Under the pieces are notes generated by a model. It was not told the DNA's origin. It was given only the letters and a program-made list of their open reading frames with translations, and made no database searches. Below, piece after piece: positions 30,826-32,437 of a stretch of DNA of 64,000 bases. The stretch is from an uncultured Acidobacteriota bacterium (GTDB lineage Bacteria > Actinomycetota > Acidimicrobiia > Spongiisociales > ZC4RG35): contig CAVVMG010000001.1 of assembly GCA_963749415.1 (NCBI GenBank), positions 1,486,765-1,550,764 of the forward strand. The letters run 5' to 3'. The translations under genes and the position numbers were made by a program. The first letter of the stretch is position 1. Each line of letters opens with the position of its first letter.

Positions 30826-31474
30826 TCACGTGACCGGGAGCGCAGGCTCGGAGCGACCGCGCCTCGAGAGATACAGATGCCAGACCAGGCGCGCCGCCAC
30901 CGCCCGCACCGGTCGCCAGGGGGCGGAGACAATCTCCAGCTCTTCGGGCCCGGGGATCTGCTGAAGGCCAAGCGCTTCAGCGACTCCGACTTGGAGGGCA
31001 CGATCGCCGACGGGAAACGCGTCAGGGAGGAGCAAGGCGGAGAGCAGGTAGGCGTCGGCGGTCCAGGACCCGATCCCCCTCATCGCCAGCAACCGGGCCC
31101 GCGCCTCTTCCTCGTCCAGGCCCTGGAGGGCGGCGAGGTCGAGGGTGCCGGCCTCGACCGCCTCGCGCGAGCGAGACGAGGTATCCCGCCTTCTGCCTGG
31201 TGACCCCGATCGCGGTCAGCCCGGTCTCGCCGACCCGGAGCACGGAGCCGGGGGTCACCGCGCCCAGGAGCTCGATGAGCCGCCGGTACATGGCCGCTCC
31301 CGACTCGAGGGAGACCTGCTGCTCGAGGATGAGGAGCACCAGGGTGGGGAAACCCTGCGCTCGCTGCCAGAAGACCGGCAGCCCCCAGTCTTCGATGATC
31401 GAGTGCAAACCCGGGTCCTCGTCGCCCAGCATCCGCGCCGCTTCGACAAATGTGATGGCATCCAGGTGAGTCAC
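30826..31474 (-). pseudogene. AlkA-like HhH-GPD DNA glycosylase domain interrupted by a 1-nt frameshift near 31170-31180. In this sequence it is in frame with, and lacks a stop from, the upstream SodX peptidase.
   Basis: Frame A reads ...FPTLVLLILEQQVSLESGAAMYRRL...RQKAGYLVSLAR then nonsense. Frame C continues exactly at REAVEAGTLDLAALQGLDEEEARARLLAMRGIGSWTADAYLLSALLLPDAFPVGDRALQ, the HhH-GPD hallmark, and runs to the stop at 30826. There is an internal GTG at 31474 (VTHLDAITFVEAARMLGDEDP). Confidence 0.6.
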
Positions 31475-31771
31475 CCGCCGCCACAGATCCCGGATCGCCA
31501 CCGGCCCCAGGGTGCGGGAGTCGGCTGTGGTGACTGAGGCATTGTCCGAAAGCACCCACGCCTCGTCCGGGCCCAACCGCCGCTCGCCGATCGCCTCCCC
31601 GGGCCCGGCCGCCATCCGCTTCACCAGCCAGAAGTCCCCGCGCTCGGGATGAGGCAATGTCACAACCTCGCCGGCCTGGGGCTGGATGGAGTCGGTCGCG
31701 ACGAACTCGTCGCCCGGTAGGAGGGTCGGCAGCATCGAGGATTCGGCTACGCGAAACCGGCGCATGGGCAT
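31475..31771 (-). CDS. sodX: S26 signal-peptidase-family protease, SodX-like (NiSOD maturation peptidase). No in-frame stop before the downstream AlkA-like domain.
   Basis: S26 catalytic motifs SMLPTL (Ser), LVKRMAAGPGE (Lys) and SDNASVTTADSRTLGPV (GDNR-S-DSR box). Divergent from and adjacent to sodN. Start taken at MPMRRFRV (31771). Confidence 0.65.
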
Positions 31772-31823
31772 GGCCCCCCGAGGGTATGGTCGAAAACACA
31801 GACCGGACAACCAAGGAGTGTCA

Positions 31824-32231
31824 ATGCGCCGGGTAACCGTTGCCCATGCACACTGTGACCTGTTCTGCGGGGTCTATGACCCGGCCCAGGCCAAGATCGA
31901 GGCGATGTCGGTGCTCAAGATCGCCGAGAAGTACGCCGAGTCGAGCGACGATGTGTTCAAGGCTCGCGCCATCGCTCTCAAGGAAGAGCGAGCGGAGGAC
32001 GTCAAGCACCATCTGATGGTTCTCTGGGTCGACTTCTTCACCGCCGACCACCGCAAGGAGTTTCCCGACCTCGATGATCTCTTCTGGAGGGCGATCCATC
32101 AGGCCGGCGACGCCAAGAAGTCGGTTGATCCCGAAGACGGGAGGAAGCTGATCGAGCTCATCGATGAGATCGCCGACATCTTCTGGCAGACCGAGAAGGC
32201 GAAGGGGATGGGGGTCTACCCGCCCGCTTGA
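31824..32231 (+). CDS. sodN: Nickel-containing superoxide dismutase precursor (9-aa leader MRRVTVAHA then the Ni-hook)
   Basis: Mature N-terminus HCDLFCGVYDPAQAKIEA... matches NiSOD (HCDLPCGVYDPAQA) along its whole length (VKHHLMVLWVDFF, IDEIADIFWQTEKAKG). SD AAGGAG 6 nt upstream. Position 5 of the hook is Phe, not the usual Pro. Confidence 0.9.
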   Translation: MRRVTVAHAHCDLFCGVYDPAQAKIEAMSVLKIAEKYAESSDDVFKARAIALKEERAEDVKHHLMVLWVDFFTADHRKEFPDLDDLFWRAIHQAGDAKKSVDPEDGRKLIELIDEIADIFWQTEKAKGMGVYPPA

Positions 32232-32437
32232 TCGCTTTCTGGCTTCGACGCCGAATGGATGACCGAATCGACCCGTGTCTTCACCTTGCCCATGGCGTTC
32301 GCCGCCCATTCGTATTCAGGGGCGAGCAGGGCCAGGCCTCCCAGGATGGTGACGATCCCGGGCCCAGGTAGCACCAGCATCGCGGTGCCGGCTCCGAGGA
32401 GGGTGAAGCCTCCAGCAACACGCATTACCCGTGTCAT
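32216..32437 (-). CDS. PGPGW-motif small membrane protein (PF09656-like, 73 aa)
   Basis: MTRVMRVAGGFTLLGAGTAMLVLPGPGIVTILGGLALLAPEYEWAANAMGKVKTRV... This is the only protein-like part of the long Arg/Gly-rich ORF 32216-33325. 3' end overlaps sodN convergently by 16 nt. Confidence 0.6.
   Translation of the reverse strand: MTRVMRVAGGFTLLGAGTAMLVLPGPGIVTILGGLALLAPEYEWAANAMGKVKTRVDSVIHSASKPESDQAGG

Follow-up and report, generated by a model that had tools for sequence, protein, structure and literature searches.

The sodN gene of the window (the term used here for the whole 64-kb stretch of DNA that was analysed) is identified as a genuine nickel superoxide dismutase (NiSOD) gene, the product of which carries Phe where the published Ni-hook motif has Pro. 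According to the sequence comparisons presented below, an aromatic residue at this position (Tyr or Phe), or rarely Met, typifies a large actinobacterial NiSOD subfamily, in which Phe5 is reconstructed as having been derived from Tyr5 at least eight times, the lineage of the window included. Read in this context, the window gene is almost certainly functional and an ordinary NiSOD gene for its Acidimicrobiia lineage.

Identity and organisation of the sodN gene

The deduced protein was matched by Pfam Sod_Ni PF09055 (2.4e-37, 128.8 bits against a cutoff of 25) and passed the cutoff of 90 of the NCBIfam sodN equivalog TIGR02753 with 126.7 bits. In the PDB, where the NiSOD sequences matched were those of Streptomyces only, 1q0d (hook HCDLPCGVY) was matched at 6.5e-32 and the Streptomyces NiSOD chains aligned with the window protein end to end. 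The Pfam, TIGR02753 and PDB matches thus agree with an earlier reading of the same DNA made from the letters alone (the sequence-only reading), in which the gene had been taken for a NiSOD.

The features of the locus are collected in Table 1. Read directly, the coding frame runs from ATG (31824-31826) to TGA (32229-32231) and opens with the leader codons ATG CGC CGG GTA ACC GTT GCC CAT GCA, which are followed by the hook codons CAC (His1, 31851-31853), TGT (Cys), GAC (Asp), CTG (Leu), TTC, TGC (Cys), GGG (Gly), GTC (Val) and TAT (Tyr, 31875-31877). A GAAGGA or CAAGGA is kept before sodN in the aligned upstream regions of related loci. No Fe/Mn-SOD signature was found by signature search within the 64-kb window.

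Table 1. Coordinates of the features of the sodN locus in the window.
Feature	Position	Strand	Remarks
HhH-GPD (AlkA-like) DNA-glycosylase domain	30826-31462	-	Pfam HhH-GPD; fused in frame to the SodX-like domain
SodX-like S26 peptidase domain	31463-31771	-	Pfam Peptidase_S26, 7.8e-08, 32.9 bits against a cutoff of 22.9
Motif GGGTATGGTCG, 11 nt	31782-31792	+	conservation of at least 80% in an alignment of 69 upstream regions
Ribosome-binding site AAGGAG	31813-31818	+	5-nt spacer to ATG; read directly
NiSOD precursor ORF (sodN)	31824-32231	+	135 codons and stop
Leader peptide MRRVTVAHA, 9 residues	31824-31850	+	read directly; presumed cut after Ala-His-Ala
Mature NiSOD, 126 residues	31851-32228	+	modelled four-helix bundle
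Ni-hook HCDLFCGVY	31851-31877	+	His1, Cys2, Cys6 (Ni ligands), Gly7, Tyr9
Mature codon 5, TTC (Phe)	31863-31865	+	canonical Pro replaced; read directly
Val60-Asp61-Phe62 codons	32028-32036	+	end of helix 2; Phe62 vs Tyr62 of Streptomyces
C-terminal extension KGMGVYPPA	32202-32228	+	past the end of the Streptomyces enzyme; aromatic-5 subfamily signature

At its 3' end, sodN overlaps by its last 16 nt a convergent gene for a small membrane protein of the PGPGW family (73 aa, 32216-32437, minus strand), and a neighbour of this family also stands beside sodN in the related contig L081.

Residue 5 of the Ni-hook across NiSODs

The Ni-hook motif H-C-X-X-P-C-G-X-Y has been described as conserved (PMC12933891) and used as a filter in NiSOD identification (PMC4460010). 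The window protein has H1, C2, C6, G7 and Y9 and does not match this motif because of Phe at position 5, a departure already reported in the sequence-only reading and confirmed here by reading of the codon. The rarity which that reading had attached to Phe5, on the other hand, was not borne out. The 120 closest clusters at 90% identity carry HCDLYCGVY (107), HCDLFCGVY (12) or HCDLYCGAY (1), and Pro5 is found in none of them. When one genome per GTDB species was scanned, a relative was detected in 413 genomes; in the best 80 of these 413, nearly all labelled as Acidimicrobiia/Actinomycetota MAGs (some automatic labels being evidently wrong), residue 5 is Tyr in 50, Phe in 29, Met in one and Pro in none, encoded by TAC (43), TAT (7), TTC (27), TTT (2) and ATG (1) and never by CCN. 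The relatives in these best 80 genomes are 79-98% identical to the window protein, and this spread, together with their differing contexts, excludes that the related sequences all derive from one contaminant.

A search seeded with a distant Tyr5 representative gave a sister group in which 114 of 120 clusters are non-Pro (108 Tyr5 and 6 Phe5). Its non-Pro members include cultured Ilumatobacter, Mycobacterium lehmannii, Mycolicibacterium confluentis, M. vaccae and M. sarraceniae as well as MAGs of Ca. Nanopelagicales, and all of the sister-group proteins which have a name are annotated 'superoxide dismutase, Ni'. Among about 270 non-Pro clusters, residue 5 is Tyr, Phe or Met only; HCDLFCGVY was found in 22 protein clusters and is carried by P0001 and P0002, each 99% identical to the window protein. 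The sequence-only reading had let its rarity claim depend on an alignment of NiSOD position 5 and, as non-Pro residues are the rule in a large clade, such an alignment speaks against it.

Among more distant relatives, represented by clusters at 50% identity, the hook was readable in 111 of the best 150 representatives and has Pro in 93, Tyr in 13, Phe in 3 and Met in 2. Pro5 was also present in 119 of the 119 cyanobacterial-type NiSODs taken as control. Since the whole Tyr/Phe5 subfamily fails the published motif, it is the motif that appears too narrow rather than the protein that lies outside the NiSOD family. The subfamily is already in public databases and is apparently undescribed as a hook variant; the strings HCDLYCG and HCDLFCG were not found in the literature searched, and a 2021 preprint on NiSOD phylogeny contains no discussion of the hook motif.

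Two candidates for additional non-Pro lineages were rejected. P0267 had been a candidate for an independent second lineage with Tyr5. Its only source is one ENA contig of 757 nt, where a leader and hook of the Tyr5 actinobacterial type meet a NiSOD body of cyanobacterial type at the conserved stretch GVYDPA. HCDGPCGVY-type hooks are carried by all of the 119 proteins nearest to it, and P0267 is probably an assembly chimera, which calls for caution in motif surveys on short metagenomic contigs. P0191 is a frameshifted fragment. Within the sister group, three Tyr5 clusters (P0432, P0437 and P0483) have the hook HCDLYCAVY, with Ala for the otherwise invariant Gly7, a further departure from the published hook motif.

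Origin of Phe5

When column 5 was masked, a neighbour-joining tree gathered the non-Pro sequences into a single clade inside the Pro-type actinobacterial NiSODs; a lone Met5 protein and two sequences regarded as artefacts fell elsewhere. By parsimony, residue 5 changed eight times from Tyr to Phe within this clade and once from Phe to Met. The window protein and L001, which both have Phe5, nest inside the Tyr5 neighbours L002, L003, L005 and L010, the nearest Tyr5 relatives of the window protein being L002 and L003 at 94-96% identity. Such a position indicates that Phe5 arose there by a recent one-base change from TAC to TTC. The sequence-only reading had reasoned that Phe would require two substitutions from CCN and that the codon was consequently no artefact. 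The codon is indeed no error, TTC or TTT being present at this place in 29 species genomes, but the CCN argument is inapplicable as the immediate ancestral state is Tyr (TAC), a single base away from TTC.

Conservation and modelled structure

Selection on sodN is purifying, with a median dN/dS of 0.115 in comparisons with 68 relatives and a value of 0.04 for the closest of them. In 69 genomes, each hook codon varies synonymously while the residues are fixed, with a dS of about 0.9 across the clade. An alignment of 192 mature sequences shows no variation at H1, C2, C6, G7 and Y9; in the non-Pro group, H1, C2, D3, C6, G7, Y9 and R39 are invariant, E17 being present in 130 and R47 in 115 of 132 sequences. 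Of the second-sphere residues of the Streptomyces enzyme, the window protein has Asp3, Tyr9, Glu17 and Arg47 but not Tyr62, which is Phe.

The AlphaFold2 model (mean pLDDT of 90) is an up-down-up-down four-helix bundle with helices at residues 11-30, 34-62, 74-90 and 94-113. Its top Foldseek matches are the NiSOD structures 1t6u, 3g50 and 1q0d (TM 0.86-0.97); for 1t6u, 1q0d and 1t6i, the TM score is 0.86 when normalised to the query and 0.93-0.97 when normalised to the target. No strong PDB match was obtained outside NiSOD. At hook residues 1-6 the pLDDT is below 50, as it is in the hook of a Pro5 control precursor. The model is therefore uninformative on hook geometry, and the geometry predicted for these residues was dropped.

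Residues associated with an aromatic position 5

The Tyr/Phe5 group differs from Pro5 NiSODs in a set of further residues. Phe62 is found in 130 of 132 Tyr/Phe5 sequences vs Tyr62 in 54 of 60 Pro5 sequences, and Met56, Ala/Val60, Thr64, Arg68, Phe71 and Asp75 are likewise distinctive of the group. Of 260 full-length Tyr/Phe5 sequences, 237 have a G-V-Y-P-P tail (MGVYPP followed by Ala or Ser), which is absent from all of 173 Pro5 sequences; among those listed, the Tyr/Phe5 examples with another tail are MGVYPV or MGVYPI variants or truncated. From the topology, the hook, the end of helix 2 and the C-terminus are at the same end of the bundle, so that the subfamily changes plausibly surround the hook, as judged by topology and covariation rather than by coordinates.

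Residues 5, 60 and 62 occur as Tyr-Ala-Phe (154), Phe-Val-Phe (33), Phe-Ala-Phe (11) and Tyr-Val-Phe (6). On two branches of the tree, one in the window lineage and the other in a Phe clade of 20 members, residues 5 and 60 changed together; with 9 changes at one position and 7 at the other over 324 branches, about 0.19 such coincidences would be expected. Ala60 is retained in the single-sequence Phe5 lineages and in the six Phe5 clusters of the sister group. The coupling between positions 5 and 60 is thus partial, and the coincidence test, with its two joint events, is suggestive only.

A simple swap of tyrosines, in which P5Y would compensate for Y62F, was also considered and is not supported because Phe62 occurs in 25 of the 119 Pro5 cyanobacterial-type NiSODs. 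It is further weakened by the Phe5/Phe62 proteins, which are without both hydroxyls.

Leader peptide and upstream region

A start codon (ATG, TTG or GTG) is retained at the sodN start position throughout 80 related loci; in several of them in-frame stops lie shortly before it, and the upstream translations are not conserved. These observations together support the leader of nine residues that had been deduced in the sequence-only reading. Its shortness, regarded there as special, turns out to be the norm of the clade (101 of the 120 closest clusters) and is shared by some Pro5 NiSODs, the leader of the sister group having 14 residues. AHA precedes HC in nearly all of the best 80 of 413 species loci, and removal of the leader with exposure of His1 is presumed from what is known of NiSOD maturation.

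Upstream of the gene, GGGTATGGTCG lies about 34 nt from the sodN ATG and 10 nt from the start of the divergent fusion gene. The TATGGT within it fits the actinobacterial -10 pattern TANNNT, which makes GGGTATGGTCG a probable sodN promoter element; as a -10 element alone would usually be less conserved, an operator could be included. A scan of the local region for sigma-70 consensus promoters and terminators gave no match, the GGGTATGGTCG site included, and neither did an Rfam scan of the same region.

The adjacent SodX-like/HhH-GPD fusion gene

The S26 (SodX-like) peptidase gene placed next to sodN in the sequence-only reading is present and divergent from it, the two start codons being 52 nt apart. 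In translation, the domain has a SMLPT serine box and a VKR lysine box, the motifs of the S26 Ser/Lys dyad, and it covers positions 2-84 of the 90 of TIGR02754 (sod_Ni_protease) with 38.1 bits, below the cutoff of 63.25. A SodX-like domain was found upstream of sodN in 80 of 80 related loci, and a SodX-like gene also adjoins sodN in Mycobacterium and Ilumatobacter, where it is stand-alone. The small stand-alone form expected of SodX (about 90-150 aa), which the sequence-only reading had assumed, does not apply to the window lineage, where the SodX-like sequence forms the N-terminal part of a fusion that continues into an HhH-GPD domain. Of 80 related Acidimicrobiia species loci, 74 have this fusion beside sodN, the intact ORF in relatives being 314-321 aa long, and in a related contig it is annotated as a single gene. 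A DNA-repair domain is thereby physically linked to a factor of SOD maturation.

In the window, one extra base relative to L001 in the CGCGCG run at 31164-31169 (minus strand) frameshifts the glycosylase half and leaves the peptidase domain intact; the frameshifted ORF ends at 31022 and the remainder runs on in another frame to 30826. Since alignment of the window with the near-identical contigs L081 and L082 shows many indels (for L082, 34 gap openings over 12.4 kb), this frameshift may be an assembly error and not the mark of a pseudogene. Two MAGs each have two contigs bearing the sodN and fusion-gene locus (L004/L031 and L039/L055), for which gene duplication or mixed strains in the bin are possible.

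Proposed mechanism and alternative explanations

It is considered highly probable that the gene encodes a working NiSOD of an uncultured Acidimicrobiia bacterium, belonging to the Tyr/Phe5 subfamily, in which a bulky residue 5 would do the job of the proline turn. From known NiSOD biology, the precursor would be cut after Ala-His-Ala by the divergent SodX-like S26 peptidase, and Ni would then be bound by the His1 amine, the Cys2 amide nitrogen and the thiolates of Cys2 and Cys6, with the His1 imidazole as axial ligand in the Ni(III) state and Tyr9 gating the substrate site as in the Streptomyces enzyme. Residue 5 is not a metal ligand and is limited in the subfamily to a bulky hydrophobic side chain; this side chain probably packs where the bundle meets the hook, close to residues 60-62 and to the subfamily-specific MGVYPPA tail, and may thereby replace the rigid proline turn. 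The Phe5 of the window would be a recent and recurrent one-base derivative of Tyr5, apparently tolerated and often accompanied by the change of Ala60 to Val.

A bolder proposal is that the aromatic-5 hook is structurally distinct, its turn being held, in place of a cis-proline, by an aromatic residue 5 packed on the end of helix 2 (residues 60-62) and on the tail, with Tyr62 lost and possibly replaced by Tyr5 or by the Tyr of the tail, and with anion access or redox tuning altered. This is held only tentatively and is rather doubtful as it stands; if true, the 'diagnostic' motif would miss a sizeable share of natural NiSODs.

Unlikely as well, to a somewhat greater degree, is that position 5 became unconstrained once Pro had been lost, Tyr and Phe being accidental and the covarying residues phylogenetic hitch-hikers. 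Position 5 is not a ligand and Tyr-to-Phe changes are frequent (eight events), and as most of the signature differences trace to a single ancestral branch, the covariation is confounded by descent. The restriction to three residues among the non-Pro clusters, despite the level of synonymous divergence in the clade, and the change of A60 to V on the same branch in both multi-species Phe5 clades nevertheless argue for a constraint.

A change of function of the whole aromatic-5 subfamily, to another metal or away from superoxide dismutation, would account for the clustering of P5Y/F, Y62F, K64T, K115E and the new C-terminal tail near the active-site end. It is improbable, given that all the Ni ligands, Tyr9, Asp3, Glu17 and Arg47 are kept, that the protein scores above the TIGR02753 cutoff and that the SodX-like peptidase is still linked; F62, being also present in Pro5 cyanobacterial-type NiSODs, is not tied to a new function.

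There is very little room left for the explanation that Phe5 is a one-off, a rare and possibly impairing mutation of this gene alone. It would fit the departure from the diagnostic motif (PMC4460010, PMC12933891) and the Pro5 of most distant cluster representatives (93/111) and of the cyanobacterial-type proteins (119/119), but HCDLFCGVY recurs in 22 clusters and in 29 of the best 80 species genomes, Tyr stands at position 5 elsewhere in the clade, and the gene is under strong purifying selection. An error of sequencing or assembly at codon 5, conceivable in an indel-rich, long-read-like assembly (see the gap openings against L082) with a frameshifted neighbour gene, is next to impossible for a substitution inside an intact frame, the identical codon being found in many independent assemblies and the same hook in P0001 and P0002.

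Significance of the aromatic-5 subfamily

As a single gene, the window sodN is of little significance, being a normal NiSOD for its lineage. A modest interest remains at the level of the subfamily, where a supposedly 'invariant' proline is naturally replaced, with linked changes around the hook and in culturable organisms. A strict motif filter (e.g. PMC4460010) would discard the subfamily in at least 80 species genomes and in 234 clusters (two nearest-relative searches), and with it the NiSODs of cultured Mycolicibacterium and Ilumatobacter. The natural replacement of Pro5 also offers a tractable test of the cis-Pro turn in Ni insertion and catalysis, for which culturable sources exist, and the recurrent Tyr-to-Phe switch, together with A60V, F62 and the C-terminal tail, points to specific residues of interest.

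Comparison with known NiSOD systems

The NiSOD of Streptomyces coelicolor and S. seoulensis (SodN; 1T6U, 1Q0D) shares about 48-51% identity with the window protein over its whole mature length. The two have in common the four-helix bundle, His1, Cys2, Cys6, Gly7, Tyr9, Asp3, Glu17, Arg39 and Arg47, as well as a precursor with a leader, which is cleaved in Streptomyces and likewise predicted to be so for the window. From Streptomyces to the window, Pro5 and Tyr62 are replaced by Phe, Lys64 by Thr and Asp56 by Met; the leader has 9 residues instead of 14, and the tail KGMGVYPPA is extra. We take the Streptomyces hook turn to be a cis-Pro5 turn and Tyr62 to be a second-sphere tyrosine; the lysines of this enzyme are proposed to steer superoxide.

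Synthetic hook peptides (HCDLPCG, HCDLPCGVY and longer ones) have the first 6-12 residues of NiSOD, bind Ni and dismutate superoxide, and their Leu4-Pro5 bond is trans in the active Ni-peptide complex (PMC5722923). Therefore, a cis-proline turn is unneeded for Ni binding in that peptide system, and a non-proline residue 5 becomes chemically plausible, with the difference that these molecules are peptides rather than the folded hexameric enzyme and that those considered here all retain Pro5.

The cyanobacterial-type NiSOD of Prochlorococcus/Synechococcus (HCDGPCGVY) belongs to the same family and has the same ligands and the same SodX-dependent logic of maturation, some members having Phe at the equivalent of position 62. 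It differs from the window protein by Pro5 (in each of the 119 proteins sampled), by Gly or Ala at position 4, by an insertion between helices 1 and 2 and by a different C-terminal tail, at about 34-42% identity.

The Tyr5 NiSODs of cultured Actinomycetota are those of M. confluentis (WP_085154118), M. vaccae, M. sarraceniae (WP_163695765), Mycobacterium lehmannii and Ilumatobacter sp. (WP_420450329), and the closest representative of this group, P0121, is 68% identical to the window protein. These enzymes have Tyr5 instead of Phe5, Ala60 instead of Val60 and a leader of 14 residues, and their SodX-like protein is stand-alone (92-144 aa) whereas that of the window lineage is fused to HhH-GPD. 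With the window protein they share the aromatic residue 5, Phe62, the MGVYPP tail, the junction of AHA with HC at the cleavage site and the divergent SodX-like gene.
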